NCBI GenBank assembly: GCA_047601445.1
Contig: JASGJH010000001.1
Coordinates: 1,184,001 to 1,248,000 of the forward strand
Direction: 5' to 3'
Source of the DNA: Myxococcales bacterium
Lineage (GTDB): Bacteria > Myxococcota_A > Polyangia > Polyangiales > DASUME01
Length of the DNA: 64,000 nt
This document shows, one piece after another, positions 676 through 44,083 of the stretch (positions are counted from its first letter, which is position 1; every line of letters starts with the position of its first letter). The notes under the pieces were generated by a model, which made no database searches, had not been told where the DNA came from, and worked only from the letters and a program-made list of their open reading frames with translations. The translations under genes and the position numbers were made by a program.

Positions 676-898
676 GGCGCGAACCCGCCGCTGGCTGGCG
701 CCCCTAGGTCGCTGCGCTAGCCCCTTCGGCATCGCGGCCCGCCGAAGGTGGGCATGAATACGACTGTCGCCCTTTCTCGGAGTCAGCGACGACCATGGAC
801 ATGGTGTAAGGAAGCACTGCCCTGGTTGACGCAAAAATCCTTCGCGTGAGGCCGACAACGATGGAACCGCGACCGCCGGTGTACGCCAAGCAAGCTTC

Positions 899-1595: not shown

Positions 1596-1671
1596 CAGGC
1601 GGTAGCGCCGCGAGGCGGGGCATCGTTCAGCCTTACCGCCTCGCCATGCGCTTCTGCTTACCCGCTGTCGG

Positions 1672-2405
1672 CTACGGCCTGACGCACACGCTCGGACTTC
1701 CCATGCAGGTCCATCCGCTCTCGATACGACAGGGGGCGAGCAAACTGCTCGACATCACACAACCATCACCGCTCACGTTGTTGGCGTCGTCGCATTGCTC
1801 GGTGCCTTCTACGATGCCGTTGCCACAAGTGTGAATGCACGTGGTCCGGCCACCGCTGGGCGTCGTGCAGGTGTAGCCAAGCTCCAGCTTGCACAGGCTC
1901 GAGCAGCCGTCCGCTGGCGTACGGTTGCCATCGTCGCAGGCCTCTCCAGCGTCGAGCGAGCCGTTGCCACAAAGCGTGGTGCACACGCTCCTCCCGCTCG
2001 CGTTGGTCACACAGGTCCAGGTGGCTTCCACGAAGCACGAGAGGGTGCATCCGTCACCGTTCACCCCGTTCCCGTCGTCGCACATCTGTCCGGGGTCGAC
2101 GATCCCGTCGCCGCAGCGGTAACAATGACTCTTCCCGCTGGCGTCGCTCGTACAAGTCCAGCCACTGTCGATGCGACAGGTCGCATCGCATCCATCGCCG
2201 ACGATCGCATTGCCGTCATCACAGTTCTCGCCGACTTGCACGACGCCATTGCCGCAATTCTTCGTGCAAGTGCTCCGCGCATCGGCGTCGACCGCGCAGC
2301 TCCACCCGGTCTCCACAGCACAAATACCGGAGCACCCGTCGCCGGTCGCCATGTTGCCGTCATCGCATGCCTCGGAGCTCCGCATGACGCCGTCGCCACA
2401 GGTAT
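1672..2405 (-). repeat. Five myxococcal cysteine-rich (DUF4215-like) protein repeats
   Basis: Five units of CG[DN]G-x7-CDD[GA]N-x4-DGC...[WY][ST]C in the translation. Confidence 0.85.
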
Positions 2406-28706: not shown

Positions 28707-29070
28707 TCGCCGAGAGCGCTTCGCAACCTGCGAAGCGCTCTACCTTTATGCCCGAAGAGGAAAACGCACCAGGCATTTCAGCAGGTGTTGTGTCGGTTGA
28801 CTTCAGCAGGCTGGATTTCTCCAAGAAGCGAGTTCTCCCCGGGTACGCCGCAGTTCGCAATGTCGCCTTCGCCCCGGGGCGAAACACGGCGTGTCTGGGC
28901 ACGGGTAGGCGTGGGAGACGAGTGTTACCTGGCTGCCGTCCACGCGATCAGAGCTCAATACTGTTGAGCTCGTTGCCCCGGCATATGCGCATGTGCGCCA
29001 AGCCGCTCAGTGGTTTGAGTTGGCACGCGACGACGCACGTGCCCTCGTGCCTCCCGGGAGAGCCGGGCGA

Positions 29071-29120
29071 CCCGACATTTCTAAAAACCGCGATCCCGAC
29101 ATCTCTATAAAACGCCAACA
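29071..29120. mobile_element. Orphan IS terminal end, IS1202/IS481-like
   Basis: CCCGACAT[T/C]TCTA at 29071 and 29095 (24-bp period), ending ...ACA at 29120 (TGT on the minus strand); no transposase seen. Confidence 0.55.
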
Positions 29121-29130
29121 CAACCACTTC

Positions 29131-29202
29131 GGAGAGTAGACGCCGGGATCGCTCCCGGGGCCCCTCGCAGAACCGTACGTGCGGCTTTCCCGCATACGGC
29201 TC
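29131..29202 (-). ncRNA. Group II intron domains V-VI
   Basis: GAGCCGUAUGCGGGAAAGCCGCACGUACGGUUC (29202-29170), then GGGG...CCGGGAGCGAUCCCGG...CUACUC. Confidence 0.93.
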
Positions 29203-29207
29203 CCAGC

Positions 29208-30086
29208 TCAGCGCATCCGCGTCGGGGAAGGGTACAGGTGATGGACGACTCGAGGCTTAGGGATGATGTATCCCTCTTTCCAAAGCTGCAGGAAGCGCGC
29301 CCATGAGAACGACTTGCGCTGACTCCGCCGATTCAGCCACTTAAACAGCAGTTTCGCCGCCTGTCGGAAGTAGGCCCGGAGCGATCCGGAGTTCCCGCTG
29401 ACGCCGTAGTACTGCTCGTAGCCGCGTAGGTGTTGCCGAGCGTAGTCGAGCATGGCGCGCCCACCATCGGTTCGCAGACTCTTCAACCGCTCCTTGAGCC
29501 CCTGCAGCTGCCGCCGCATTCGCTTCGCGTCCGTGCGCCGGCCGACCACGAACTGGCCGGCTTGGCTCTTGGCTGCGTAGTGAGTGAACCCGAGGAAGGT
29601 GAAGGTCTCTGGTCGTGTTCGATTTTCTCGGTGGCAGTGCTGTTGGGCGAAGCGCCCAAAGCGCAGCATCTTCGTCTTGGAGGGTTCAGCCTCCAGGGCG
29701 AACTGACCGAGTCGCGCCACAAGCTCCGAGTGGAACCGCGTCGCGTCTTCCTGCTTCTCGAAGCACGCCACGAAGTCGTCCGCGTAGCGGATGAGCTCGG
29801 CGTCTCCGGTGCAGGTCTTTCGAAAGCGTCCCTCGAACCACCAGTCGAGCACGTAGTGAAGGTAGATGTTCGCGAGCACGGGCGACACGAGTCCGCCTTG
29901 CGGCGTTCCCGTGTTCGTGATCTCGAACGCACCATCGTGCATGACGCCAGCTTTGAGAAACCGTCGCAGCGTCCGCACAAAGTGCGGGTCCGCAATCCGG
30001 TGCTCGAGAAATCGCAGCATGTGATCATGGTTGACCTCATTGAAGAAGCCTTTGATGTCGGCTTCGACGACCCAGCCGATTCTCTG
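29208..30086 (-). pseudogene. ltrA: Group II intron RT/maturase, N-terminally truncated (RT3-7 + X domain, no endonuclease)
   Basis: WVVEADIKGFF, GTPQGGLVSPVLANIYLH, RYADD, FTFLGFTH, WLNRRSQ; in-frame TAA immediately upstream of 30086. Confidence 0.9.
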
Positions 30087-30181
30087 TTACCCGGGCGCAC
30101 GCAAGGCTGGATACCGGGCTCCCGGCTACGGGCTTCCCGGGGAGGAGTCCCACCTCCTAGGCAAACATGTCTTAACCAGTC

Positions 30182-30209
30182 ACTTCGCAGAAGATAGATT
30201 ATGTAAACC
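30182..30209 (+). other. dif: dif (XerC/XerD recombination) site
   Basis: ACTTCGCAGAA-GATAGA-TTATGTAAACC: arms match B. subtilis dif (ACTTCCTAGAA/TTATGTAAACT) at 9/11 and 10/11; KOPS polarity inverts around it. Confidence 0.85.
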
Positions 30210-30349
30210 GACGGGGTCGGTAAAGGAAAGCCACGCCGGGCGCACGAAGCGCGAGCCTACGCTATTCGACCTAGTCCATCGTGCATGCGGCATCGGACTT
30301 CCGTCCCGTTGCGGCGAGTCATGTCGCCGATCCATGGTCGGCAGAGAAC

Positions 30350-30982
30350 ATGGCAAACTCGGAACAACCCACAAACCGTGATCTTGAAACCCTCACGACG
30401 CGGCTTGCGCACCTCGAACGGAGGGAGCGCAGACGTCGCAAGCGCGCGTGGACGCTCGCGGGGATAGCGGCACTCCTGTGCGCGGGACTCTGGGCAGATC
30501 GCGCGCTCTCGGAGCCCAACGCGCCCAACGCCAATCGCGGCCATGGCTGGCTCTACTACTTCAACGCTGGTAGCCCGGCGGTGGCCATTCATGTCAACAG
30601 CAACTTCGAGGAGCTCGCAAACAGGATCGATGGTCTCAGCGCAGCGCTGGCTGATACGAACAACGCCGTGAGCTCGCTCGGCGGCAGCCTGGCTGGAATC
30701 GGAGCTCGAACAGGCACGCTTGAGAGCTCCGTGGGTGGACTCTGGGGCCGGCTGAACGGGGGCCTGAAAATAGGCGAGCCCGTAAGGACGAATGGCCTGC
30801 ATGTAGCAGACCAGATCCGGCTGAAGCTCACAGGCGACAAGAGCTCATTTTGCGCGCTCGTCTACGCGAGAAACCTGAGTCAGCCAGACTCGCGTTGCTA
30901 CGTGTCACTCGAAGACGACGGTTGGTACGTCTATTCGAACTGGTACGCTGATTGCGAGGCTCGCTGCGTCTGGGGACCATGA
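30350..30982 (+). CDS. Hypothetical exported coiled-coil protein with FxAGxPAxAxxVNxNF motif
   Basis: ATG 30350; TM/signal segment; heptad-like stalk; Cys-containing C-terminal domain. Confidence 0.7.
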   Translation: MANSEQPTNRDLETLTTRLAHLERRERRRRKRAWTLAGIAALLCAGLWADRALSEPNAPNANRGHGWLYYFNAGSPAVAIHVNSNFEELANRIDGLSAALADTNNAVSSLGGSLAGIGARTGTLESSVGGLWGRLNGGLKIGEPVRTNGLHVADQIRLKLTGDKSSFCALVYARNLSQPDSRCYVSLEDDGWYVYSNWYADCEARCVWGP

Positions 30983-31022
30983 CCGTCGAGACCAACCGCG
31001 AACCAGTTGCACATAGTTTCAA

Positions 31023-31640
31023 TCACTTGGCCCGGCCGTCGGCCAGGCTCTCGTGTTCGCGCTCCTGGGTGAGACCGCGAGAGCTGGAGAGTTTGGCGTC
31101 CCCGTGCGGATTGGGCTCTGCCACCGAGTCGGCCTGGCTTCCGGTCGGGTCCGCGTCACTGAGCGCGCGACCCGTGGCTTGTGCCTCGGCGAGCGGCTTG
31201 GCGCTCCCGGGCCGTCCATCTGCCAACGTGTGTCCCGAGCCCAAATGAACCGGCGGCTTCGACGCGCTGTCGCCTGCTGACCAGCTCGCGAGGTTCGGCA
31301 GCTCCCGCTCGACGCGGCTCCGGGTCTCGTCGCTGCAAAGACCCATGACGGCCCGCCATGCCAGCTCGGCGTGCTCCTGGGCTCGGGCGCGCTCCACGTG
31401 GGCCGCGCGGGCCACGTCGGCGATCAAGCCGTCCAGCGTCGCGTCATGCGCACCGCTTGCGGGTCGGCACAGCCGTTGTGAAAGCTCGTTTGGAAGCTCA
31501 TCGCTCAGCGTCTCCTTCAGATGTTTCGGCAGGCGCCGGCCCAGCGCATCGAGCGTCGTCAGCAACGCGCGCTCGGCTTCGGCCCGGGGCCATGGGGCGC
31601 TTCGCTGCAAGTGATCCAAAAGTTGCGTATAGACCGTCAT
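31023..31640 (-). CDS. DUF2267-like protein
   Basis: AERALLTTLDALGRRL...LSDELP pattern. Confidence 0.65.
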   Translation of the reverse strand: MTVYTQLLDHLQRSAPWPRAEAERALLTTLDALGRRLPKHLKETLSDELPNELSQRLCRPASGAHDATLDGLIADVARAAHVERARAQEHAELAWRAVMGLCSDETRSRVERELPNLASWSAGDSASKPPVHLGSGHTLADGRPGSAKPLAEAQATGRALSDADPTGSQADSVAEPNPHGDAKLSSSRGLTQEREHESLADGRAK

Positions 31641-31763
31641 CGCTTGGGTCCTCCAGCTAGATGGTGGGAACGGCGCGGGCCTACGAAAGTCCGTGGCGAG
31701 CTGCCTGAGTCTTGGCGTGAGCAGCGCTGCGTAGGGAGTGGCCCTCACGACGCAACTCGAGCC

Positions 31764-32732
31764 CTACTCCCCGTATTGCGCTGACTCCGCTGCATGGGGT
31801 CCCTGGCGCAGCGCGGCTAGCGGTTGGCTCGAGACCGCAAGAGCCATGGTGTTCTCGGGCTCCGAGCTCGGGCTCTCGGGTCTCCCGGGCTGGGACTGCT
31901 CCTGTTCCGGCTCGGGCTTGTGATCGTTGGGTTTGTATTTGCCGATCGGGATGTCTACCCCGAAGGACACGCTCCAGTTGCGGATGGCCTTCTGCGGGTT
32001 GTCCTTCACCGTATCCACCAGCCCCAGCACGCTCTTCACCCGCACGCGAAAGCTCCGCATGTGCTCTCCCTTGGAGAACGCGTACTCCACGCTGCCCACC
32101 ACACCGATGTCATAGGGCGTGAGCTCCTTCCGGATGCCTTGCGAGAGCTCGTAGGTCTGGCCGGAGATCTTTTTCTTCACGGTGTCGCTCGCGTTGGTCA
32201 GCACGTTCAGCTGTGGACCCAGGCCGAGACCGATCGGTCCAACGACCCACTTGAGGATCACCGGCAGCGCCACCGCGCGCAGCTCACGTGTGTCTTCGCC
32301 CTGCGTGATGAGCGTGTCGAGCGTCGGCTCGCCCTCGGGTGGCACGAACGGATAGCCGGGCACGCTCGGGCTCAAGCCCCTGGCTCCGTTCGGGTTCTTC
32401 AGCATCAGCTCTGGCTGCAGCGTCAGGCTCCGGGTGAGCCGGATCTCGCCGTAGATCCCGAGGCTCCAGCTGAGCCTCATCTTGTTCGATATGCCCCAGA
32501 AACCGGTGCCCACGAAGCTCGCGGAGATGCCGGGCTGAAAGTTCTTGGTGACGATTTTGTCACCGACCAACAGCATCAGCATGGCCTGTGCCTGCGCGCG
32601 CTGCGGAGTCGCCCCGCCGAGGCCCATGAGCAGGATCCACGCCCAAAGCAAAACTGTTGGCGCGCGCACGCGCCCCCCGTGCACTGCTCGCTTCGCTGCA
32701 GCCATGGCGACAGCATGGGCCGCAACGCCCAT
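31764..32732 (-). CDS. Outer-membrane beta-barrel (porin-like) protein; start uncertain
   Basis: Signal AQA, LQPEL, LPVILK, GLGPQL amphipathic strands. Confidence 0.7.
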   Translation of the reverse strand: MGVAAHAVAMAAAKRAVHGGRVRAPTVLLWAWILLMGLGGATPQRAQAQAMLMLLVGDKIVTKNFQPGISASFVGTGFWGISNKMRLSWSLGIYGEIRLTRSLTLQPELMLKNPNGARGLSPSVPGYPFVPPEGEPTLDTLITQGEDTRELRAVALPVILKWVVGPIGLGLGPQLNVLTNASDTVKKKISGQTYELSQGIRKELTPYDIGVVGSVEYAFSKGEHMRSFRVRVKSVLGLVDTVKDNPQKAIRNWSVSFGVDIPIGKYKPNDHKPEPEQEQSQPGRPESPSSEPENTMALAVSSQPLAALRQGPHAAESAQYGE

Positions 32733-32806
32733 GTTCGACCAGCGGGCCCGCACGACACACCCAGATGCGGGAACACGATCCCTCACCAGGTCGCTGCCAG
32801 TTGTGT

Positions 32807-33439
32807 ATGCTCGGCGCCGTGGACGCCCGTCGTTACGCGATCGATCAAGTGGCCGAGCACTGCGATCTGAGTGAGCGGCTCAAGTTGCTGCCCCCTTCCG
32901 CTTCTTCACGTGGGTTCTTTTTCCGCAGCATCGACAACGTGCTTGAGCGCGCGGGTAAAATGGACCGCTTCGAGCGGATCTTCCCCGAGCGGATCTCCGG
33001 TCTGCGTTACTACCCCGTTTCGGAGCTCCTCATTCGACTGACGGTGGGCGCGGCGCTGCTCCGTGGTCCGGAACAGGTGCACGCAGGCATGTTCGAGATC
33101 GGACGTAACAACGTGTCCGCGGTGATGGGGAGTCTGCTCGGCAAAATGATGCTGAGGTTTCTGGCGATCGATCCACGCTTGCTCTTGCAACAGGGGGTCG
33201 CCGGAAAACGTCAGACCAGCAACTTTGGGCGCTGGGATCTCAGCTTCCCGGAGGAGCACACGGCGCAGGTCTCCATGACCGAGGAGTACCTCTATATTGA
33301 GTCCTACATGTTGGGCGCGGCCCAGGGTACGTTCGAAGCGGTCGGCGTCCCGGTTTCGGTCAAGGCCTCTTTGGTGGACAGGTTTACAGGAACCCACACC
33401 CTGCGCTGGGGACCTTCATGTGAGGATAGCCCCTCATAA
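32807..33439 (+). CDS. DUF2378 (TIGR02265) myxococcal family protein
   Basis: RGFFF, RYYPVSE, SLLGKMM, SNFGRW. Confidence 0.8.
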   Translation: MLGAVDARRYAIDQVAEHCDLSERLKLLPPSASSRGFFFRSIDNVLERAGKMDRFERIFPERISGLRYYPVSELLIRLTVGAALLRGPEQVHAGMFEIGRNNVSAVMGSLLGKMMLRFLAIDPRLLLQQGVAGKRQTSNFGRWDLSFPEEHTAQVSMTEEYLYIESYMLGAAQGTFEAVGVPVSVKASLVDRFTGTHTLRWGPSCEDSPS

Positions 33440-33517
33440 CCACAGCAGATTTTAGGTCCTGCGCTCCCCCCAATTGCGGCCCATCCCACAGTTTTCTAAC
33501 AGCCCTCAGTTTCGGAG

Positions 33518-35119
33518 TTGGTACCAGTGTCACAGGCAGGCTCACTGATCCTGGTTCAGCGTCCTGAGCTGCAGGCCGAGCTCTGTGCCCTGGCTTCCAG
33601 TTTGCCATGGGCCGCGAACCGCGGATTGAGCTTCCATGTGGCCGAGGGCGATCCCCGCGAGGCCATCGACCTGTGGCGGAGCCGCGACGTGGGGGTGCCG
33701 CTCGGGTTCATCGCCGCGGACGAGTCCAGCGCCCTCTTGGCCCTGGCGAGCGGTGCTGACGAAGCCTCCGTCATCCCTGCGGAAGCCGAGGCCCTCGCGT
33801 TCTTCGTCGAGCGCCTAGAGCTCCGTGCCCGGCTGCGGGCGGAGACCCAGCGTACCCACGAGCGCTTCGCTCATGCCGAGAAGCTCGCGGCGCTCGGCAC
33901 GCTCGTGGCCGGCGTCGGGCACGAGATCAACAACCCGCTGTCCGCCCTGCTGCTCTCCATCGAGGCCGCGCGTCGCTTGGTCCTCCCACAGCTCGAGGCA
34001 GCGCAGCAGCTCGTCACAGCCACGCGCGAAGGACGCGCGTTGCCGGAGCCCGATCTCTCGCGCGTCCAGGCGTCGTTCTCGAACGAGCGCCTCGGACGCG
34101 ACGCAACGCGCATGTTCGAGGACATGAACAGCGCGGCCGACGCCATCACCTCCATCGTGCGCGACCTGCGCATCTTCGCGCGCTCGGACGCCGAAGAGCC
34201 GGCGGAGCTAGTGGAGATCGATGCGCTGATCGATCATGCCATTCGTCTCGTGGGACGCGAGGTGTTCCAGCACGGCCTACTCGAGCGCGACTTCACGCCC
34301 GAGTTGCCCAAGCTGGTGTTGCCTCGCAACCGCGTGACGCAGGTGATCATGAACGTGCTCATCAACGCCTGTCACGCCATCCGCGAAGTGGAGCGCCCCG
34401 TGCATCGCGTGCGCATCTCCACGCGCGCTGACGAGGACTACGTGGCCATCGCGGTGAGTGACACCGGACCCGGCATCTCCCCGGACTGCCTGGGTCGCAT
34501 CTTCGATCCCTTCTTCACGACCCGCCGCAACGAGCTCGGCACGGGCCTGGGGCTCGCCATCTCACGCTCGATCCTGCGGCGCATCGGCGGTGACCTGGCG
34601 GTGGAATCGGTGCATGGCTCGGGGGCCACCTTCCTGTGCTTCCTGCCCCTCCCCAGTCGCGAGATGCTGAAGAACGCCTACCAGCGCACCAGCGTGGTGC
34701 CGCGCGAGAAGACGGCGCCCAAGCGCCTGTCGTCGGTGCTGCTCGTGGAAGACGACGAGCGCGTCTTGCGCGGCTACGTGCGCCTCCTGCACCCGGACTA
34801 CCGCGTGATCATCGCGCAGGACGCCACGGATGCCATCGGGCTCCTCGAGTCGGGCTCGAGCCCCGACGCGGTGTTGATGGAGCTCGACCTGCAGGGGTCC
34901 GACGGGCGAAAGCTTCTGAGCTGGTTGGAGGAGCACCGGCCGCACCTGCGGGAGTCCGTGCTGCTCGTGACGGCCGCTTCGGGCAAGCCGGAGTACGCGG
35001 AGTTCTTGCGGGACTACCGGGGGATGCTCCTGCACAAGCCGGCCAACGGTGCCGACCTGCTGCAGGCCGTGGAAGCCACGCTGACGCGCGCGAGCTCAGG
35101 CGCTGTTTCGGCCGAGTAG
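33518..35119 (+). CDS. Hybrid sensor histidine kinase with C-terminal (pseudo)receiver
   Basis: GHEINNPL H-box, INACHA N-box, DTGPG, FDPFFTT, GTGLGL; receiver VLLVEDD...HKP. Confidence 0.9.
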   Translation: MVPVSQAGSLILVQRPELQAELCALASSLPWAANRGLSFHVAEGDPREAIDLWRSRDVGVPLGFIAADESSALLALASGADEASVIPAEAEALAFFVERLELRARLRAETQRTHERFAHAEKLAALGTLVAGVGHEINNPLSALLLSIEAARRLVLPQLEAAQQLVTATREGRALPEPDLSRVQASFSNERLGRDATRMFEDMNSAADAITSIVRDLRIFARSDAEEPAELVEIDALIDHAIRLVGREVFQHGLLERDFTPELPKLVLPRNRVTQVIMNVLINACHAIREVERPVHRVRISTRADEDYVAIAVSDTGPGISPDCLGRIFDPFFTTRRNELGTGLGLAISRSILRRIGGDLAVESVHGSGATFLCFLPLPSREMLKNAYQRTSVVPREKTAPKRLSSVLLVEDDERVLRGYVRLLHPDYRVIIAQDATDAIGLLESGSSPDAVLMELDLQGSDGRKLLSWLEEHRPHLRESVLLVTAASGKPEYAEFLRDYRGMLLHKPANGADLLQAVEATLTRASSGAVSAE

Positions 35120-35671
35120 GAACTTCGCGAGCGGCATCGCGTCGAGGCGCGCGGTCTCGAGCAGGCCCTCGATCAAACGGCGTCCGAGCCGGGCCAAATC
35201 GAGCAAGCGTTGGATGCGGGCTTGCTGCGCCTGGGCGCGCGCGCGTACCTCGGCGTCGTCCGATTTGAGGTGCTCGTCCAGCGAGGCCAGCGCCTGCTCC
35301 ATCGCCGCGATGGCCTCGAGGACCTCGACCAGCTCACGCTCCCGGAAGACGCGCGAGATCATCTTCCAGAGGTTGCTCTCGGCCACGAAGAAGTCGCGCC
35401 GTTGACCGTGGATCCAGACGCGCTTCACCACGCCCCAACGCAAGAGGTCGTTGAGCGCCATCGACACGGAGCCGGCCGAGAGCTCGAGCCTGTCGCGTAG
35501 CTCGTTGGCGCCGAGCGGCTCGTCCGAGAGGTAGAGCAAGCTCCAGATGCGGCCCATGTGGCGCTTGAAGCCCCAGAACTCGATCAGACGCCCGACGGCG
35601 TCGCTCAGCAATTGTTCGCTCTGCCAAAGATCGGCACGACCTGTGGGTGCTTCTTCGGTTGGCGTGGTCAT
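35096..35671 (-). CDS. GbsR/MarR-family transcriptional regulator
   Basis: WGFKRHMGRIWSLLYL...LSAGSVSMALNDL. Confidence 0.85.
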   Translation of the reverse strand: MTTPTEEAPTGRADLWQSEQLLSDAVGRLIEFWGFKRHMGRIWSLLYLSDEPLGANELRDRLELSAGSVSMALNDLLRWGVVKRVWIHGQRRDFFVAESNLWKMISRVFRERELVEVLEAIAAMEQALASLDEHLKSDDAEVRARAQAQQARIQRLLDLARLGRRLIEGLLETARLDAMPLAKFLLGRNSA

Positions 35672-35707
35672 GTGCGCTCCGTGTTTGCGCGTGAATCGAA
35701 AGCCGAG

Positions 35708-36742
35708 TCAGGTCTTACGGCGAGTCAACACCAGGGCGAGGTTTCGCAGGAGTTCCCGCGGACGAGCTTCGGGGAGTAGCTCGAGTGCAGCCAGCGCTTG
35801 GGAGCTCTGTTCGAGAGCATAGGCGCGGGCTTCTTCGCAGGCACTCTGCACGAGCGGATGGAGACTGACCAGCCGAGCTGCTTCGGCCTTCCCCTGGCGA
35901 GCAGCCGCCAAATGCTCCAGCAAATCGCCGGCGCCGTCCCGTTCGAGGGCTAGCGCGAGCGGCAACGTGGTCTTGCCTTCGGCCAAGTCGGCACCGAGTC
36001 GCTTGCCCACTTCGCGCGGGTCTCCCGCAAGGTCGAGCACGTCGTCGATGATTTGAAAGGCCACACCGACCTGCTCGCCGAAGCGTCCAGCCGGCTCGAT
36101 GAGATCTTCCCGTTTGGCCACGCGTGCACCGCTGCGACAGGCGAAGCCAAAAAGGGACGCCGTCTTGCCGCGCACGATGTCCAGGTAGCCTTCGACGCCC
36201 AGGTCCTCGCGGCCGCGGGCCTTGAGCTGCGCCACTTCGCCCGCAATCAAGCGCTCCAGGGTACCGAGCATGTCGTGCATGGCGCCCGGGACGCCGGCGC
36301 CTTCCACCAGCTGCAGCGCACGCGTCAACAGCAGGTCCCCCGACAGCACGCTGACCAGGTTTCCCCACAGCACGCGGGTCGCGGGGCGATTGCGCCGCTC
36401 TTCGCCCTCATCGATCACGTCATCGTGGAGCAAGGTCGCCGAGTGGATGAGCTCGGCGGCCGCTGCGATGGCCACGGCGTCACGGGGATCTCCGCCGCAA
36501 GCTGCGGTGGTCAGGAGACAGGTCAGCGGGCGCACCCGCTTCCCCCCGGCCTCCACCAAGTGCAGCCCGGCTTCGGCCAACGGCACCGGGCCGTGAACTG
36601 CCGAAATCACGCGGTCTTCGAGAATGGGGAGCGCGTCCGAGAGCAGGGCGCTCACGGCGTCCAGGTGCTGCGCCGCCGCCGCCGAAGACGGGTGGAGACG
36701 TGCAGCGTCCTTGAGTGCTTCCTGTTGGGCCGCTGGGATCAT
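35708..36742 (-). CDS. Polyprenyl diphosphate synthase
   Basis: GGKRVRP, LHDDVID, FQIIDDVLD, GKT. Confidence 0.93.
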   Translation of the reverse strand: MIPAAQQEALKDAARLHPSSAAAAQHLDAVSALLSDALPILEDRVISAVHGPVPLAEAGLHLVEAGGKRVRPLTCLLTTAACGGDPRDAVAIAAAAELIHSATLLHDDVIDEGEERRNRPATRVLWGNLVSVLSGDLLLTRALQLVEGAGVPGAMHDMLGTLERLIAGEVAQLKARGREDLGVEGYLDIVRGKTASLFGFACRSGARVAKREDLIEPAGRFGEQVGVAFQIIDDVLDLAGDPREVGKRLGADLAEGKTTLPLALALERDGAGDLLEHLAAARQGKAEAARLVSLHPLVQSACEEARAYALEQSSQALAALELLPEARPRELLRNLALVLTRRKT

Positions 36743-36943
36743 CGCTGTCTCCGTCCGAAGCGCGCTGTCTCGCGCGCGAGCTTCATCGTCCGTGCAGAAG
36801 TTTCAAAAAACGTTGAACTATGGGCCCGGCCAGGGGACACGTCAACCTTGGCGGGCGCTTCCCAGCTCCGGGGCAAAAATGCGAGAGATCACGCAAAACC
36901 GCGGCTATCTGAGGTATGAAGGCGCCACCGGAGACGAACCTAC

Positions 36944-37534
36944 GTGCGTTTTTTCCTTGGTTTCCTCACTGCCTCGGTGATCTGGGGTGCCCTCGCGACG
37001 CTTGCCTACCTGGGCGTGCTCCCCTTTCCGTCCGCAGAGCCCCCCGAAGAAGAGGTGGTGGCTGCGGTCGAACCCGGCGTCGAGGAGGTTGACCCCAGCG
37101 GGAAGGGCAAGCGCCGCAAGCCGCGTCGAGCGAGGGCCGCGGGCAGCACTGCCGGTGGCCGGGACCGCAGCGGCGATCAGACCGAGGGGCAGGTCGGCGA
37201 CGATCTCGATTGGGATGGGACGCGCCAGGTCGATATGGGCGCCGGCGAAGAGCAGCTCTCGGGCAAGGAGATCGAGAGCGGGTTCGACAGCGTGATGAAC
37301 CGGATTCGTCGCTGTCTGATCCTGGTGCCGGCCGATGGGGAAATCAAAGGTCAGCTGTTGTTCGGCATGCGTGTGGGCGGCGATGGCAAGCCGCGCGCGG
37401 TGCAGCTCACGGGGCCTTCGGTGGTCATCAGTGGGGAGAGCGGGAGCTGTCTGCGTGAGGCCGCGCAGGGCATCCGCTTCGCGACGTTCGACGGCCCCGA
37501 GATGCTCTTCAAATACCCAGTGACGTTGCAGTGA
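36944..37534 (+). CDS. Membrane-anchored protein with AgmX/PglI (TonB-C-like) C-terminal domain
   Basis: N-terminal TM; IRRC...SCL...IRF...YP pattern. Confidence 0.7.
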   Translation: MRFFLGFLTASVIWGALATLAYLGVLPFPSAEPPEEEVVAAVEPGVEEVDPSGKGKRRKPRRARAAGSTAGGRDRSGDQTEGQVGDDLDWDGTRQVDMGAGEEQLSGKEIESGFDSVMNRIRRCLILVPADGEIKGQLLFGMRVGGDGKPRAVQLTGPSVVISGESGSCLREAAQGIRFATFDGPEMLFKYPVTLQ

Positions 37535-37543
37535 GTGCGAAGC

Positions 37544-38338
37544 CTAGCGCCCCTTGAACTCAGGCTTGCGCTTGGCAGCAAACGCTTCGAGGGCTTCCTT
37601 GCGGTCTTCCGAGGTCAGCACACGCTCGTAGCAGGCGCGCTCGCGGTTGAGCCCGGCCTCGAGTGGGAGCTCATCGGCGGCACGTAGCGCCTCCAGGGCC
37701 GCCGCCAGGGCCAAGGGCGCACCTTCGCGGAAGGGACGCGCCAGCTCGAGAGCGAACGCGAGCACGTCCTGGTCGGCTGGAGCCACACGATGCACGAGGC
37801 CGATCTGCCATGCCTCCTCGGCGCTGACGCGCTCGCTCAGCAGCACCATCTGCGTCGCACGTGAAAGGCCCACCACGCGCGGCAGGCGCTGGGTTCCGCC
37901 CGCGCCTGGGATGATGCCGATCGACACCTCGGGCAATCCCAGCGCGACGCCCGGGGCGGCCACGCGCAGGTCGCAGGCCAACGCGAGCTCCAGCCCGCCC
38001 CCCAAGGCGGCGCCGTTGAGTGCCGCGATCACCGGGCGGTCCAGCCGATCGATGGCCAGCAACGTGCGCTCGGCCGCGTTCAAGAACTCGCGTACCTGGG
38101 CGTCGCTCATGCTGCGCCGCTCCTTCAGGTCCGCCCCCGCACAAAACGCGCGCGTGCCCTGCCCCGTGATCACCACCGCGCGCACTTCCTTGGAGGCACG
38201 CGTCTCGTGCACCAGCTGCTCGAAGGCGCGCAGCATCTCTGTGGTGAGGGAGTTCATGCGATCCGGACGTGCCAGGGTCCAGATGGCGATGCCGTCGCGC
38301 TGTTCCACCAAGATGCCGACGTCCGACGCGTTCGTCAT
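37544..38338 (-). CDS. Enoyl-CoA hydratase/isomerase family protein
   Basis: FCAGADLKE, GGGLELALACD, PEVSIGIIPGAGGTQRL. Confidence 0.93.
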   Translation of the reverse strand: MTNASDVGILVEQRDGIAIWTLARPDRMNSLTTEMLRAFEQLVHETRASKEVRAVVITGQGTRAFCAGADLKERRSMSDAQVREFLNAAERTLLAIDRLDRPVIAALNGAALGGGLELALACDLRVAAPGVALGLPEVSIGIIPGAGGTQRLPRVVGLSRATQMVLLSERVSAEEAWQIGLVHRVAPADQDVLAFALELARPFREGAPLALAAALEALRAADELPLEAGLNRERACYERVLTSEDRKEALEAFAAKRKPEFKGR

Positions 38339-39201
38339 GGGTTCTCCTCGGGTTGCGACCCCGGCCGAGCCTGCGCCGAAAGGCCGAGTCGTTCGCGGTA
38401 GACGCGGTTTCTCGGATCGAGCTGCACGGCCCGCTCTAGCTCGACGGCGGCCTGCGAGGTGCGCCCGAGCTGCGCCAAGAGGAGCGCTCGGCCTACCCAG
38501 GCCGGCGCGAACTCCGGCGAACGCGCGAGGATCTCGCCGTAGATGGTCAGCGCCTCCTCGTAGCCCGCGCGGTTGATCACCAGCGCGGCCAGCCCCAGCT
38601 GGAGGCTGCGCTCCTCCGGAAAACGTTGCAGCGCATCGCGCAGAGTGCGCTCGGCGGCTTGGGGATCGCCGGACTGGGTGAGCGCGATGGCCAAGGCGTG
38701 ACGGGTCTCAGCGTGGTCGGGTTCGAGCGCGACCGCAGCGCGCAGCGGCTCCACGGCGTCCTGCGGACGTCCCCAGCGCAGGAGGCGTGTGCCGAGCACA
38801 CGGTGGGTCCACGCTCGTTGGGGCTCGAGGCTGACTGCGGCGCGATAGGCGGCTTCGGCCAGGTCGTACTGACGCGACAGCTCCAGGGCGTGGCCAAGGT
38901 ACACCTTCAGGCGGGCTTGCTCGGGGCCCAGCGTGCAGGCGTGCTCGAAGGCTCGTACCGCCTCGGGTCCCCTGCCCTCCCCCACATAGGCACGTCCCAG
39001 ATCTACCCAATAGGAGAGTTCCTCGGGCTCCTCGCGCACGGCTTGCTCGAGCGCTGCGCTGGCGGTGCCGAAGGCTCGGTCATCGAGGGCACGCCGCCCA
39101 CGCGCTGCCGCCGGGTGGACGCAGCCAGTTGTCCACAGGCCCCACGCGAGCGCGCACGACGCCACCAGAAACACGCGCAACCGACCCCGGCCTGGTCCCA
39201 T
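38335..39201 (-). CDS. TPR-repeat lipoprotein
   Basis: TTGC lipobox; multiple TPR units. Confidence 0.8.
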   Translation of the reverse strand: MGPGRGRLRVFLVASCALAWGLWTTGCVHPAAARGRRALDDRAFGTASAALEQAVREEPEELSYWVDLGRAYVGEGRGPEAVRAFEHACTLGPEQARLKVYLGHALELSRQYDLAEAAYRAAVSLEPQRAWTHRVLGTRLLRWGRPQDAVEPLRAAVALEPDHAETRHALAIALTQSGDPQAAERTLRDALQRFPEERSLQLGLAALVINRAGYEEALTIYGEILARSPEFAPAWVGRALLLAQLGRTSQAAVELERAVQLDPRNRVYRERLGLSAQARPGSQPEENP

Positions 39202-39249
39202 GTGCGCGGGAGCTTGACGAGTTGGGGCATCGCGCGGACGATCCGGGCC

Positions 39250-39531
39250 ATGACACGCGAAACGTTGCAATCCATCCTGCGCGCGGCCGAGGGACTGACT
39301 GACAAGGCCGGTGCATTCCGCGTCCCGAGCGAACATCGAGTGACGTTCTACCTCGGAAACGAGGGCCGAGGCATCGTTGTGAACGAGGTCGAGGAGATCA
39401 AGCTGGCCGACGACTACCTTCAGCTCACTGCACCCGAGCCCGGCCAGGTGTTCACACCGTACGCCGCCGTCTACGCAGTGTCGATCAAGCCGCCCAAGCC
39501 CAATGCGCCCAAGAAGGCGGGCTTCGCCTGA
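39250..39531 (+). CDS. Small conserved-looking protein (93 aa), translationally coupled to pilR
   Basis: MTRETLQ...KKAGFA; TGATG overlap; good codon bias. Confidence 0.75.
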   Translation: MTRETLQSILRAAEGLTDKAGAFRVPSEHRVTFYLGNEGRGIVVNEVEEIKLADDYLQLTAPEPGQVFTPYAAVYAVSIKPPKPNAPKKAGFA

Positions 39532-40946
39532 TGCCAGCACGGATCCTCGTCGCGGACGATGAGGCCGGTTTGCGCGAGATGCTCGGGGTCTTGCTGCGTC
39601 GTGCGGGATACGAAGTGGAGCTGTTCGAAGGCTGCCGCGCAGCGCTCGCGCGCCTGCAGGAGACACCTGCGTTCGATCTGGTGATCACCGATCTCGCGAT
39701 GCCCGACGGCTCGGGTATGGAGCTCCTGGAGGCCGTCAAGAAGCGCGACGATGCACTGCAGGTGATCATGGTCACCGCGTTCGCTACCACGGAGCAGGCC
39801 GTGGAGGCGATGCGCCTGGGGGCCTACGACTACATTCAGAAGCCCTTCAAGAACTCGGAGCTCCTGGCGCAGATCGAGAAGGCCCTCGAGAAGCGCTCCA
39901 TCGTGCACGAGAACCGCGCCCTCAGGGCCCAGGTCTCGGGCACCTTTCGCTTCGGGAGTCTCATTGGCAAGGGCCAGAAGATGCAGGGCGTGATGGAGCT
40001 CGTGCGACGCGTGGCGAGCGGCCGCTCCAGCGTGTTGATCACGGGCGAGAGCGGCACGGGCAAGGAAGTCATCGCACGCGCCGTGCACGACGCGGGGGAC
40101 CGCGCCAAGCACCCCTTCATCACTGTGAACTGCGGCGCCCTTCCCGAGTCCCTGATGGAGAGCGAGCTGTTCGGCCATGAGAAAGGCGCTTTCACCGGGG
40201 CCAACACCAAGAAGGACGGCCTGTTCCGGGCCGCCCAGGGGGGCACGCTGTTCCTCGACGAGGTCGGCGAACTCCCCCTACCCCTGCAGGTGAAGCTTCT
40301 GCGGGTGCTCCAGGAGCGCAAAGTGCGTCCAGTGGGCGCACACCAGGAACTCGAGGTGGATGTGCGCGTGGTGGCCGCCACCAATCGCGACGTCGAGCAG
40401 GCCGTTCAGGACGGCACCTTTCGCCAGGACCTCTTCTATCGACTGAACGTGATCCGCATCAAGCTGCCCCCCTTGCGCGAGCGCCTGGAGGACGTACCGA
40501 TGTTGGCAGCCCATTTCTTGCAAAAGCATTCGGCGTTCGAGGGCAAGAGGCTCAGTTTCTCGCCAGAGGCATTGCAGTGGATCGTCCAGCAGCAGTATCC
40601 GGGCAACGTGCGCGAGCTCGAAAACGTGGTCGAGCGCGCCGTGGCGCTGGCAAGCGAGCCATTCGTGGTGCGTCGCGATGTTCAGAGCAGCGCCTATTTT
40701 CAGCCCGTGGCGATGGAGCCGGAGCCGCTGCAGGTGCTGCCGCCCGAGGGGCTAGACCTCGATCAAGTGCTGGGAAACCTGGAAAAAAGTTTGCTCGTGC
40801 AGGCCCTCGAACGCACCGGGGGCAACCGCACCAGCGCGGCCAAACTACTCGGCACCACATTCCGCTCCCTACGCTACCGGCTCGCCAAGTACGGCCTGGG
40901 AGAGGATCCAAATTCGCCGCTCGGAGAGGAACCGGGCGAAACTTAA
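39531..40946 (+). CDS. pilR: Sigma54-dependent response regulator (PilR/NtrC family)
   Basis: Receiver, GESGTGKE, GAFTGA, Fis-type HTH FRSLRYRL; directly upstream of pilins. Confidence 0.9.
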   Translation: MPARILVADDEAGLREMLGVLLRRAGYEVELFEGCRAALARLQETPAFDLVITDLAMPDGSGMELLEAVKKRDDALQVIMVTAFATTEQAVEAMRLGAYDYIQKPFKNSELLAQIEKALEKRSIVHENRALRAQVSGTFRFGSLIGKGQKMQGVMELVRRVASGRSSVLITGESGTGKEVIARAVHDAGDRAKHPFITVNCGALPESLMESELFGHEKGAFTGANTKKDGLFRAAQGGTLFLDEVGELPLPLQVKLLRVLQERKVRPVGAHQELEVDVRVVAATNRDVEQAVQDGTFRQDLFYRLNVIRIKLPPLRERLEDVPMLAAHFLQKHSAFEGKRLSFSPEALQWIVQQQYPGNVRELENVVERAVALASEPFVVRRDVQSSAYFQPVAMEPEPLQVLPPEGLDLDQVLGNLEKSLLVQALERTGGNRTSAAKLLGTTFRSLRYRLAKYGLGEDPNSPLGEEPGET

Positions 40947-40995
40947 GACAACCCGCGCGCGGCCTCCTCGCCGTGGGCGATGGACGGGGCCTGCA

Positions 40996-41547
40996 ATGCA
41001 TCATCGACAGCTGAGTTCGAACATCTCCCAGGCCGACGCGCGGCGCCGCGCGGAAGGCTTCACGTTGATCGAGATGATGGTGGTGGTGGCCATCATCGGC
41101 ATCTTGGCCGGCATCGCCATCCCCAAGTACATCGGCTACTTGTACCGCGCGAAGACCACCGAAGCGGTGGGGTTCCTGGCCGACATCAAGGGGCGGCAGG
41201 AGGCCTACAAGAGCGAGTACTATCAGTACTGCAATGTCTCCAAGGACGACGATGACTACTACCCCACGGGTAATCCCATCGCGACACCGCGCTCCTGGGG
41301 CAACGGCACAGCAGGCTGGCGGTCGCTAGGCCTCTCGCCGCCCGGAGGCGCGGTGCGCTTCGTCTATCAATCCATCGCCGGGGCTCCGGGCACCAAGCCC
41401 GCGGGCGATCTGGGATACGACGGGACCGACTTCTGGTTCATCTCTCGCGCCAAGGCCGACCTCGACGCCGATGGCACCTTTGTGACGTTCGAGAGCTACA
41501 GCCACCGCGCGGCGCTCTACATCGACCAGGACCGGGGCTGGGAGTAG
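40996..41547 (+). CDS. Type IV pilin-like protein 1
   Basis: G|FTLIEMMVVVAIIGILAGIAIP prepilin motif. Confidence 0.9.
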   Translation: MHHRQLSSNISQADARRRAEGFTLIEMMVVVAIIGILAGIAIPKYIGYLYRAKTTEAVGFLADIKGRQEAYKSEYYQYCNVSKDDDDYYPTGNPIATPRSWGNGTAGWRSLGLSPPGGAVRFVYQSIAGAPGTKPAGDLGYDGTDFWFISRAKADLDADGTFVTFESYSHRAALYIDQDRGWE

Positions 41548-41661
41548 CGACTGACAATTCTCGGCACCCCTCGGCAGCTCGGGGTGACCAAAAGCGCCTT
41601 GAAGCTCGTTGGATTGGGCGCTGCTTCACAGAAACTCCAGGCCCTGCTGCTCAAACCCGCC

Positions 41662-41677
41662 TGGCACGACCGCTGCA
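41662..41677 (+). promoter_or_regulatory. Sigma54 -24/-12 promoter of pilin 2
   Basis: TGGCACGACCGCTGCA, GG-N10-GC. Confidence 0.8.
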
Positions 41678-41779
41678 ATAGACCCAATCACGAAGAACGC
41701 AGCAACGAAAGTTCACTCGGTCATCTTGAGGTGGCTGGTTGGTACGTATGGCGGGCATCCGCCGAAAAGGGGAATGGAC

Positions 41780-42352
41780 ATGCGCAAAGCAATCAACAAG
41801 AAGTCTGGTTTCACGCTCATCGAGCTCATGATCGTAGTCGCGATCCTCGGCATCCTGGCCGCCATCGCCATCCCCGCCTTCGTCACCTACGTGCGTCGCT
41901 CCAAGACGGCCGAGGCGAGCGAGCAGCTCAAGGCGTTGTTCAACGGCGCCAGCGTCTACTACACGAAGGAGCGCCCCTCCGCGACGCTCGGCGACGGCAG
42001 CACCCTGGTGCACTGCGTGACCACGGAAGGTAAGGGCCAGATCACGCTGCCCGCCGCCGAGAAGCAGAAGCCGCTCGACAGCGCCATCGAACAGGTCAAC
42101 ACGAACCCCTACTACATGCTCGGCTTCCGCATCGACAGCGCGTACTACCAGTACCTGGTCAAGCCCACCGCCACGTCGTCCACGGGCTGCAGCAACACGC
42201 CCACCACCGCGAAGGATGCCTACACGCTCAACGCGATCGGCGACCTCGACGGCGACACCACCTACTCGACCTTCACCCTGCTCGTGGGTGCCAACAGCGA
42301 CAACGAGCTGTACCACAGCGCTGGCGTGGCCATCGAGAAGGAAACCGAGTGA
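41780..42352 (+). CDS. pilA: Type IV pilin 2, probable major pilin
   Basis: [23 protein letters not shown]; strong codon bias; own sigma54 promoter and terminator. Confidence 0.9.
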   Translation: MRKAINKKSGFTLIELMIVVAILGILAAIAIPAFVTYVRRSKTAEASEQLKALFNGASVYYTKERPSATLGDGSTLVHCVTTEGKGQITLPAAEKQKPLDSAIEQVNTNPYYMLGFRIDSAYYQYLVKPTATSSTGCSNTPTTAKDAYTLNAIGDLDGDTTYSTFTLLVGANSDNELYHSAGVAIEKETE

Positions 42353-42381
42353 TTTGAGCTGAGTCTACTGGGGGGATTGAG

Positions 42382-42420
42382 GGGCGCTGCAACCGGGGGG
42401 TCGCAGCGCCTTTCGCTTTT
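42382..42420 (+). terminator. Rho-independent terminator after pilA
   Basis: GGCGCTGCAACC-ggg-GGTCGCAGCGCC hairpin followed by TTTCGCTTTT. Confidence 0.75.
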
Positions 42421-42460
42421 AACCCTGCCCACAATAGATTGGCAGTCTGCAGAATGGTCC

Positions 42461-42476
42461 TGGCACAGAGTCTGCA
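42461..42476 (+). promoter_or_regulatory. Sigma54 -24/-12 promoter of pilin 3
   Basis: TGGCACAGAGTCTGCA, GG-N10-GC. Confidence 0.75.
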
Positions 42477-42539
42477 GACTCCCTAAAAATGGGACTCCCG
42501 ATCTGACGGCGGCAACTCTTACTTAGGGCAAGCGCACGC

Positions 42540-43115
42540 ATGCAGGACGCGTCGAAAAGAGAAGCTGGCTTCACGCTCATCGAGCTCATGATCGTGGTGG
42601 CGATCCTCGGCATCTTGGCGGCCATCGCCATCCCGGCCTTCGGATCGTACTTGCGACGTTCGAAGACAGCCGAGGCTGGCGAGCTCCTCAAGGGGCTCTT
42701 CAACGGCGCCAGCAGCTACTACGTGAAGGAACGCCACGAGGCGGTGCTCCACGGCTCGCCCATCCTCAACTGCCTCGTGCCCACGGCCATCCCTTCGTTC
42801 GGCACGGGAGGCGACCCGAAGGCGAGCAAACAGACGGGCTCCTACGACGACAGCTTCCAGGCGCTCGGCATGTCCACGCCTACCACGTACTTCAACTACG
42901 GCATCACGAATACGGCCGGTGCCTCCGCCAGCGGGGGCAACTGCGGTCACACCGCGAAGACCGCCGGCAGCGCCAGCGGTGCCTACTTGTTCACGGCTGT
43001 TGGCGACCTCGACGACGACGACACCAACTCGCTCTTCCAGCTGGCGGTGGGAGCCAACGAGGAGAACGAGCTCTACCATTCCGCCGGCGTCGCGAGCACC
43101 CAAGAGACGGAGTGA
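42540..43115 (+). CDS. Type IV pilin 3 (close paralog of pilin 2)
   Basis: Identical hydrophobic helix; shared C-terminus [13 protein letters not shown]...ETE. Confidence 0.9.
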
Positions 43116-43192
43116 GGCGCCCGGGCGAGAGGCGCACTTTCCTGCGTCGAATTGCCCATTTGCCTGGGGTGATGGGTTAAACTGAGCACCTC

Positions 43193-44083
43193 ATGCTGAA
43201 GCGGGCAGCCGTGGTGTTGGCGCTAGGTGGAATCGCGCTGTTGGCGCGCACCACGCGGCTTGCGGCTTTCGAGGAACACCAGGCCCACGAGCGCTACGAG
43301 GACGTCTACTACCTGCCGCCGGCGAACTGGCTGCCTGCCGTGAGCCTCGGCTACACGAGCGCGGCGGCGGACCTCCTGTGGTGCCGGTCCCTGGTGTACT
43401 TCGGCGAAGAGATCGGCCAGCGCGGCAACGTGCGCCACCTATTTCAGTACATGGACGCGGTGATCGCCCTCGATCCCACGTTCCGTGCCGCCTACCGCTG
43501 GGCGGCCACGGGCATCATCTACCGACCCGTTCCGCCCACCATCGACGAAGTCACTCGCGGCGCCGACTACCTGCGTCGAGCGGTGGAGCGCTGGCCCAAC
43601 GACGGCGAACTGCGCTGGGATCTCGGCTCCTATTTGCGCTTCGAGCTCGCACCCATGGTGAAGAACGACCCGGCCCGCAAGGACCGGCTACTGCTCGAGG
43701 CCGCGCCCCACCTTCACGTGGCGGGCATCAAGGGCGCCGGCCCACCTTGGCTCGCGCTCAACAACGCCACCCTGCTCTCGCGGCTCGGTAAGAAGGAGCA
43801 AGCCATCCGTCAGCTCGAGGAGGTCTACGCCACTGTGAGCGACGAAGAGACCCGCTCGGACATCATGGCCAAGCTCACGCAGCTGCGCTCCGAGAGCTAT
43901 GCGGAGGCCGTCCAGGTAGCCGTCGAGCAGTTCGAGCGTGAACGCGAGGCGAGCTTCCCCTATATGTCCCCGGACTTGTTCCTCCTGCTGGGCCCCAAGG
44001 TGAGCCCCGGGTACCCGGCCGCCATCGCGGAACACTTCGCGCCGCCCGACATGCGGAGCCCGGCCTCCGGCGAGGATATGTGA
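43193..44083 (+). CDS. PilG/XapA-like TPR-type pilus accessory protein
   Basis: N-terminal signal, ADLLW.R...YFG, LDP.F..AY helical repeats; position downstream of pilins. Confidence 0.65.
   Translation: MLKRAAVVLALGGIALLARTTRLAAFEEHQAHERYEDVYYLPPANWLPAVSLGYTSAAADLLWCRSLVYFGEEIGQRGNVRHLFQYMDAVIALDPTFRAAYRWAATGIIYRPVPPTIDEVTRGADYLRRAVERWPNDGELRWDLGSYLRFELAPMVKNDPARKDRLLLEAAPHLHVAGIKGAGPPWLALNNATLLSRLGKKEQAIRQLEEVYATVSDEETRSDIMAKLTQLRSESYAEAVQVAVEQFEREREASFPYMSPDLFLLLGPKVSPGYPAAIAEHFAPPDMRSPASGEDM

Follow-up and report, generated by a model that had tools for sequence, protein, structure and literature searches.

INTRODUCTION

The chromosomal XerCD site dif is short, conserved, present in a single copy and hard for a chromosome to lose, and it is exploited by phages, genomic islands and insertion sequences (IS) of the IS1202 family; it is an ideal refuge for selfish DNA. 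Here we describe a 64,000-nucleotide stretch (the window) of the genome of a Myxococcales bacterium (GTDB order Polyangiales; GenBank assembly GCA_047601445.1, contig JASGJH010000001.1), comprising positions 1184001-1248000 of a single-contig genome of 9,502,601 bp, in which the remnant of a group II intron sits within the XerC arm of dif. Among the elements that exploit XerCD-dif are the integrative mobile elements exploiting Xer (IMEX), such as the CTX phage, TLC and the gonococcal island. They resemble the present case in being selfish DNA at dif that leaves a usable dif behind. However, IMEX integrate through Xer recombination and have a dif-like site on either side, whereas here there is one site and the insertion would have been guided by RNA. 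Among group II introns, RmInt1 reportedly homes into ISRm2011-2 and its remnants are fragmented. Like our intron, it is reported to lack an endonuclease, to reach a multi-copy mobile or repeated target by pairing between exon- and intron-binding sites (EBS and IBS) and to decay to fragments, although its target is an IS and not a recombination site. We know of no description of target mimicry by the 5' end of RmInt1.

The group IIC-attC introns (S.ma.I2 lineage; PMC3001079) are a lineage specialised on a tyrosine-recombinase recombination site, that of integron cassettes, which they occupy in one orientation and at a fixed position, and in these respects the intron described here is alike. It differs in that the site is a XerC/XerD core (dif or dif-like) rather than attC, in that recognition is apparently by plain 6-bp EBS1-IBS1 pairing rather than through a folded bottom strand, and in having a ribozyme of the Rfam D1D4-6 type. 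IS1202-family IS of the ISAjo2 type (PMC10132070) are likewise drawn to the XerC side of pdif sites and of dif, the chromosomal one included. They are DNA elements with a DDE transposase that lie 5 bp outside the arm and produce 5-bp duplications, and their ends begin 5'-TGT, with a second transposase site near each end; the intron, in contrast, is a retroelement, lies inside the arm and made no duplication. A full-text search of the literature gave no account of a group II intron with dif or a dif-like site as its target; PMC6053426 mentions both group II introns and dif and treats them separately.

The explanation that we consider best, with a probability of roughly 0.8, is that a group II intron retrohomed into a genuine dif inside the XerC arm, rebuilt that arm and was later deleted internally. 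An initial annotation of this locus had listed domains V and VI, a reverse transcriptase (RT) remnant, a 28-bp dif and domain I-like sequence. All of these are real, but they had been put together wrongly, as an intron that starts at a GTGCG and carries dif within its domain I.

RESULTS AND DISCUSSION

A genuine dif at the replication terminus

When cumulated over 50-kb bins, the GC skew is highest at 1.2 Mb and lowest at 5.65 Mb; finer bins of 10 kb show the peak as a plateau that extends between 1.11 and 1.25 Mb. Because this plateau covers the window, we place the replication terminus here. Inside it, at genome positions 1,214,182-1,214,209 (window 30182-30209, plus strand), is a single-copy 28-bp site built of two 11-bp arms and a 6-bp centre: XerC arm ACTTCGCAGAA, centre GATAGA and XerD arm TTATGTAAACC. 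We take the TTATGT half to be the XerD arm, as in known dif sites; in this order the arms and centre run on the plus strand, the reverse of the direction in which the site was initially read. The site is unique in the 9.5-Mb genome, the sole other match requiring 7 mismatches, and the pattern TTATGTWAAC occurs twice. A XerD model scores 361.6 bits, over its cut-off, at 2.36 Mb and finds a paralogue (289.5 bits) at 0.38 Mb.

With the site and its surroundings (156 nt) as query, matches at E<=0.01 were obtained in 114 of the 401 genomes sampled from the order. The dif core was matched in 108 of the 401, which is a lower bound since the core is only 27 nt; 6 of the 114 matched another part of the query only. 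The window agrees at 27 of 28 positions with ACTTCGCAGAAGATAGATTATGTAAACT, the consensus of the best 27 order loci. Within the XerC arm, the outer ACTTC is conserved in 27, 24, 27, 27 and 27 of these loci (26, 23, 26, 26 and 26 of 26 when L096, from the unpublished genome G122, is left out). The right flank of the window is syntenic with the surroundings of dif in two other genomes: window 32804-44666 corresponds to G004:C117:8105-16336, with the G004 dif at 7898-7925, and the same flank corresponds to G007:C165, adjoining the G007 dif. To the left of dif there is no synteny with G004 or G007 over 20 kb. The site at 30182-30209 is a genuine chromosomal dif.

An intron inserted within the XerC arm

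On the minus strand, a group II intron remnant of 1056 nt occupies 29131-30186. Its extent is defined by empty and filled sites and by the complement to EBS1, and it is 82-92% similar to copies in the metagenome contigs L139, L140 and L141 and in the genomes G009, G008 and G005. At all six readable 5' junctions the intron begins at the same position of a Xer-type core, right after TTCTGC (TTCCGC in G008:C575), which is the inner half of the XerC arm. In the sense of the intron, the junction in the window reads GGTTTACATAA TCTATC TTCTGC / GAAGTGACTGG, that of G009:C404 reads TGTTAACATAA CCAATT TTCTGC / GCAGTGGTTG and that of G008:C575 reads TGTTAATATAA CCAGTT TTCCGC / GTAGTGACTG; L139 has ...CCAATT TTCTGC / GCAGTGACTG, and L140 and L141 both have ...CCTATC TTCTGC / GTAGTGGTTG. 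The intron thus starts GAAGUG in the window and GUAGUG or GCAGUG in the relatives, position 2 being U, C or A.

The cores of G008 and G009 belong to a ~130-bp repeat, and the 18 copies of this repeat provide empty sites for comparison: 12 are uninterrupted, 2 carry the intron, and in 4 the similarity is lost at the core or ahead of it. In 11 of the 12 uninterrupted copies the core reads TTC(T/C)(G/A)(C/A)GAA and runs into a conserved flank, while the remaining one has GCGCA and then an IS-type flank. Two intron 3' ends in G009, mutually identical over 141 nt, both continue CUACUCUCC / GAAACTGGCTGGCG (with CUCUCC before the junction), and GAAACTGGCTGGCG is the conserved flank of the empty repeats. 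Filled and empty sites together therefore place the insertion after TTCTGC and before GAA, a single G being ambiguous. The intron 3' end so defined lies 6 nt after the branch A, equal to the distance in a neighbouring intron (intron A) whose ends are fixed by GUGCG and empty sites. When 30187 is joined to 29130, TTCTGC+GAAGT is rebuilt, matching G004 and G006, whose dif has no intron.

By inserting, the intron divided the XerC arm into ACTTC / GCAGAA, and the displaced ACTTC is now at 29126-29130. In its place stand the first five nucleotides of the intron, GAAGU (reverse complement ACTTC), such that the outer 5 nt of the arm (30182-30186) double as the first 5 nt of the intron and the 28-bp core still reads as the order consensus. 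Since the 5' end of the intron recreates the displaced ACTTC, the 28-bp dif is intact in sequence, and presumably it remained functional after the insertion. In the relatives, the rebuilt outer arm is ACTGC or ACTAC, giving the rebuilt arms ACTACGCAGAA and ACTGCGCAGAA. The dif site is the 5' exon of the intron and not an insert within domain I. Of the earlier idea of a dif-associated retroelement that supplies its own dif, the association holds, given the fixed position in Xer-type cores; the supply of a whole dif does not, as only the outer 5 nt of the XerC arm come from the intron.

The remnant has lost most of its ribozyme

The first 100 nt of the intron (30087-30186, minus strand), which start GAAGUG and have the GGUGGGACUCC motif ~30 nt in, are the 5' part of domain I. 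They are 90.8% identical to G009:C404:23-109, which matches positions 1-86 of RF02005, the group-II-D1D4-6 model (33.1 bits, E 2.4e-7; the match is cut by the contig end), and 87.9% and 88.5% identical to L139 and L140, respectively. Over the slightly longer interval 30086-30208, identity to G009:C404:23-143 is 85%. At 30086-30087 (minus strand), the domain I hairpin loop GGGUAAC is joined directly to RT motif 2, QRIGWVVEADIKGFF. Intron nt 15-101 of the window align to L140 2181-2267 (88.5%) and nt 101-412 to L140 3162-3473 (88.1%); ~894 nt are gone, with 1 nt of microhomology at the junction. With the L140 open reading frame (ORF) starting at 2731, the deleted part comprises the remainder of domain I, domains II-IV and RT residues 1 to ~144. 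The copy at G005:C194 is 92% identical up to 30086 and then runs on into the RT N-terminus, where the window diverges.

Beyond the junction, the RT/maturase remnant (29208-30086, minus strand) is open for 292 codons, lacks a start codon and ~144 N-terminal residues, and has a stop just upstream. It corresponds to the C-terminal two thirds of group II RT/maturase models, matching Pfam RVT_1 at profile positions 69-204 of 205 (78.9 bits) and TIGR04416 at positions 122-352 of 353 (194.8 bits, cut-off 300). Domains V and VI follow at 29131-29204 (minus strand), ending CUACUCUCC; they match RF00029 (52.4 bits, E 1.9e-8, gathering score 40) and are 90% identical to the two G009 intron 3' ends.

No D1D4 match was found at E<=1 over 6 kb of the window, and in a 500-nt window scan the D1D4 model reached only 16.7 bits (E 0.17), whereas full-length relatives, as a positive control, yield D1D4-6 matches of 97-193 bits. 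With only the first 100 nt of ribozyme domains I-IV present, the element is a remnant and not an intact group II intron, and its start, GAAGUG, is not the canonical GUGYG. Searches at the DNA and the protein level found no other copy in the genome. Because the ~894-nt internal deletion removed most of the ribozyme and the RT N-terminus, the intron in the window is dead, an immobile relic.

We also considered simple 5' truncation at 30086, and rejected it: G009:C404:1-87 matches RF02005, and the 5' 100 nt align to L139 and L140. The possibility raised at the outset, that a 5'-truncated intron merely landed beside dif, goes the same way, as alignment to L140 shows the 5' end to be present and the loss to be internal. 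Likewise, a conserved stretch of ~100 bp beside dif, taken as a candidate accessory sequence or IMEX attP, proved to be intron domain I and was discarded in both roles.

Elsewhere, the lineage is known from partial copies. A metagenome scan with a pattern from the 5' stretch gave three contigs, all with partial copies: L139 and L140 have complete D1D4-6 regions (RF02005, 108.3 and 106.9 bits) followed by the RT N-terminus, and L141 is truncated. G008:C575 holds a ~190-nt 5' fragment only, with no RNA family match, and the RT interior is not assembled in G009. A scan of genome contigs for a full-length copy gave at best a 60%-identical relative in Verrucomicrobiae and the truncated G005 copy. 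The latter (L020; G005:C194:4169-5876), although the closest RT copy at 92%, is itself broken, being 3'-truncated at the equivalent of window 29609; ~670 bp downstream of it is an IS-end-like GACATTTCTA pair in the opposite orientation.

An IS1202-family end in the 3' exon

The 3' exon (minus strand) reads GAAGT / GGTTG / TGTTGGCG...TAGAGATGTCGGG...TAGAAATGTCGGG. GAAGT (29126-29130) is the sequence that formed the outer end of the XerC arm (5 nt) before the intron displaced it. The 5-bp spacer GGTTG (29121-29125) separates it from the terminal ~53 bp of an IS1202-family IS (29068-29120), which begins with TGT and contains two GACATYT motifs at a spacing of 24 bp. When the intron is removed in silico, these motifs fall at -28 and -52 from dif. 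The same flank stands in the same register beside the intron-free dif of G007 and G114 and is partly present in G004, G021, G039 and G077; at least one of the motifs is found at 6 of the 27 order loci. We had initially treated the GACATYT pair as an ancestral accessory element of dif, a reading that was given up in favour of the IS end. The end in the window has the features of IS1202-family ends, i.e. TGT, a distance of 5 bp from the XerC arm and a second site-like repeat inside, and it lies on the side opposite the TTATGT half, which fits the XerC side as given in PMC10132070. In G004, an ORF beyond the flank matches the N-terminal part of NF033594, an ISNCY transposase model (E 6.5e-21, short of the full-length cut-off). 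No DDE transposase of the ISNCY/IS1202 group was found in the genome studied here, and the window holds an end remnant only. This dif has therefore served mobile elements of two different kinds. A second pair of XerC- and XerD-arm-like sequences, as would bound an IMEX, was not found in the 64-kb window.

The start of the intron resembles the start of its 3' exon. Window 30181-30186 is the same as 29125-29130, the first 6 nt of both reading GAAGTG, and in G009 (C404 and C440), L140 and L141 the first 11 nt of the intron, GNAGTGGTTGT, equal outer arm, spacer and TGT of the IS-type flank. This match exceeds the chance expectation.

A candidate EBS1 and a model for insertion at dif

In L139, CUGCAGAA forms the loop of the hairpin that corresponds to RF02005 model positions 139-168. 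In both L139 and L140, GCAGAA, the exact complement of TTCTGC, is found at nt 213 and nowhere else within the initial 560 nt. The same loop behaves as expected of EBS1 in two control introns: in L052 the loop UGGACA (nt 211) complements the last six exon nucleotides (UGUCCA / GUUGCG), and in L025 UAUCCG (nt 184) complements CGGAUA / GUGCG. For EBS2, no convincing complement to the central region of the core was found.

These observations suggest the following model. An intron of the Rfam D1D4-6 type, with an RT that ends after the maturase part and in which no endonuclease domain was seen, would retrohome into dif, entering the XerC arm 5 nt from its outer end, between TTCTGC and GAAGT of the minus strand. 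The target would be chosen by ordinary EBS1-IBS1 pairing of the GCAGAA loop (nt 213 in the relatives) with the inner six nucleotides of the arm, and the G-N-A-G-U start of the intron (GAAGU here) would re-create the displaced outer arm. The usual home of the lineage is probably the multi-copy ~130-bp repeat with a Xer-like core in the sister species G008 and G009; this genome is without the repeat, and dif would therefore be the only matching target. The internal deletion of ~894 nt, which left the immobile relic, would have come later. Direct retrohoming is favoured because the 3' exon keeps the arrangement of intron-free chromosomal dif sites. The sequences themselves demonstrate the identity of dif, the anatomy of the element with its junctions and deletion, and the recurrent position of insertion; along with this route, we infer the EBS1 pairing for the window copy, the continued function of dif and the order of the intron relative to the IS remnant.

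Several points weigh against this explanation. EBS1 is deleted in the window copy and off-contig in G009, and was read from metagenome copies that are 88% identical; control intron A has no EBS1 complement to its own 5' exon. Activity of the lineage is hypothetical, as no uninterrupted full-length copy was seen (L139 stops within the RT and L140 is interrupted by a third intron). Only one of the 401 sampled genomes has the intron at canonical dif, the comparison genomes are mostly fragmented metagenome-assembled genomes (MAGs), and a domain V-like fragment at G008:C175 has an unrelated flank. The assignment of the XerC and XerD arms rests on known dif sites together with the side on which the IS lies. 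Finally, the GAAGUG start departs from canonical GUGYG and, with GAAGTG at both junctions in the window, the boundary is open by up to 6 nt from the sequence alone.

The last two points bear on a minor alternative, in which the 5' splice site lies 3 nt further in, the intron is GUGAC...CCGAA, 2 nt from the arm end, and G-N-A belongs to the exon. This start is nearer the canonical 5' end, and one uninterrupted G009 core (C440) natively reads GCGCA / GTGG. However, 11 of the 12 uninterrupted cores have GAA where 5 of the 6 filled ones have GCA or GTA, and with this boundary IBS1 would not abut the splice site and the branch A would be 9 nt from the 3' end, compared with 6 nt in intron A. A six-letter start, GUUGCG, is also found in L052, the closest full-length relative. 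We therefore think the GUG boundary unlikely. A little less probable again is that XerCD brought the intron in, by recombining dif with a Xer-like core on another element that already held it, so that all DNA on the XerC side was replaced. Such an exchange would account for the mixed flanks (G009:C440 combines a repeat-type XerD side with an IS-type XerC side, and the window a chromosomal XerD side with an IS-type XerC side) and for the lack of synteny with G004 and G007 to the left of dif. It sits poorly with the same IS end and 5-bp spacer standing in the same register at the intron-free dif of G007 and G114, with the absence of any copy of the repeat family from the genome and of a second dif-like site from the window, and with arm nucleotides that are canonical.

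The arrangement of the initial annotation, an intron that starts GTGCG at 30245, holds dif in a domain I loop and brings its own dif along, drew on the likeness of GTGCGCCCGGCGTGGC to a group II 5' end and on the domain I-like sequence that does follow dif. The minus-strand pieces quoted for it are present but not contiguous, with 20 nt and 19 nt between them. The GTGCG itself exists (30241-30245, minus strand), but on the XerD side, 36 nt beyond the arm. Pentamers of this sequence number 2.2 per kb per strand in the genome, and the one in the flank on this side of dif is best ascribed to chance. The surrounding 30210-30300 has no match in 40 relatives, and no RNA family matches over the GTGCG. 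In the five homologous copies (G009, G008, L139, L140 and L141), the sequence upstream of the core is the 54-nt flank of the repeat, unlike the window, and also occurs without an intron. Furthermore, the GGUGGGACUCC motif is ~30 nt from 30186, comparable to ~28 in L052 and ~31 in L025, and ~90 nt from 30245, and EBS1 complements the nucleotides immediately before 30186. Dif carried within domain I is thus very improbable.

A more speculative extension, which we hold only tentatively, is that the lineage is a Xer-site specialist whose G-N-A-G-U 5' end evolved to mimic the outer XerC arm such that the Xer site stays working. If so, the intron would occupy the one site that a chromosome cannot lose, would ride along when XerCD shuffles dif-like modules in the sister species, and selection here would have favoured A at position 2 of the intron for the perfect dif that it restores. 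Should the lineage be active, the exploiters of dif would come to include a retroelement that is guided by RNA-DNA pairing, and nature would have provided an example of an insertion that cuts through the binding arm of a recombinase but restores it with the element's own terminus. The dead copy is of value as evidence for an intron lineage that seeks dif and mends the split arm with its own end. For practical annotation, the locus comprises dif at 30182-30209, the intron remnant at 29131-30186 and the IS-end remnant at 29068-29120.

Xer-like repeats in sister species and other features

With a 260-nt query from G009, the ~130-bp repeat was found in 10 copies in G009 and 8 in G008; the same query found none in G001, G005 or G006. 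A 22-nt pattern of the repeat, allowing up to 2 mismatches, has 0 matches in the genome studied here, 8 in G009 and 6 in G008, these being the only 2 of 401 genomes matched. The core of the repeat is TGTTAACATAA, then 6 nt, then TTCTGCGAA, with 6-10 copies per genome. Examples are C251:5868-5947 and 10178-10253 (L143) and C440:6120-6205 (L144) in G009, and C272:3684-3729, 8638-8707 and 10038-10093 (L142) in G008. Several copies are direct repeats of one another at distances of 1.4-5 kb, and the intervals contain cargo-type genes (lactonase, NUDIX, FecR, hydrolases and GDSL lipase). The arrays resemble dif modules or IMEX arrays, with flanks mixed as though they had been swapped at the core, and the multi-copy Xer-like cores of myxobacteria may behave like the dif modules of Acinetobacter.

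Canonical dif is present in G004, G006 and G007. At up to 3 mismatches it was not found in the fragmented same-genus MAGs G001, G002, G003, G008 and G009, and on G009:C320 and G001:C2, also from fragmented MAGs, no dif-like site was found next to the gene orthologous to that of the right flank; given the fragmentation, these negatives carry no weight in either direction. In G008 and G009, the variant core may serve as dif, or the terminus may be unassembled.

The two metagenome contigs with complete D1D4-6 regions share a pair of introns: in both L139 and L140, intron A sits in the other flank of the repeat and intron B, the relative of the remnant described here, at the core. In L140, positions 84-3638 are a pile-up of three group II introns. 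Intron A starts GUGCG, ends at ~2122 and lies within a 54-nt repeat flank; the third intron (RF01999 D1D4-2, 65 bits) is inside the RT of intron B, at the YADD codons.

On the XerD side of dif in the window, 2.6 kb (30210-32800) with three ORFs that have no Pfam or NCBIfam matches separate dif from the syntenic genes of the right flank. The corresponding gap is ~180 bp in G004 and 5.7 kb in G007, which marks this interval as a variable islet.

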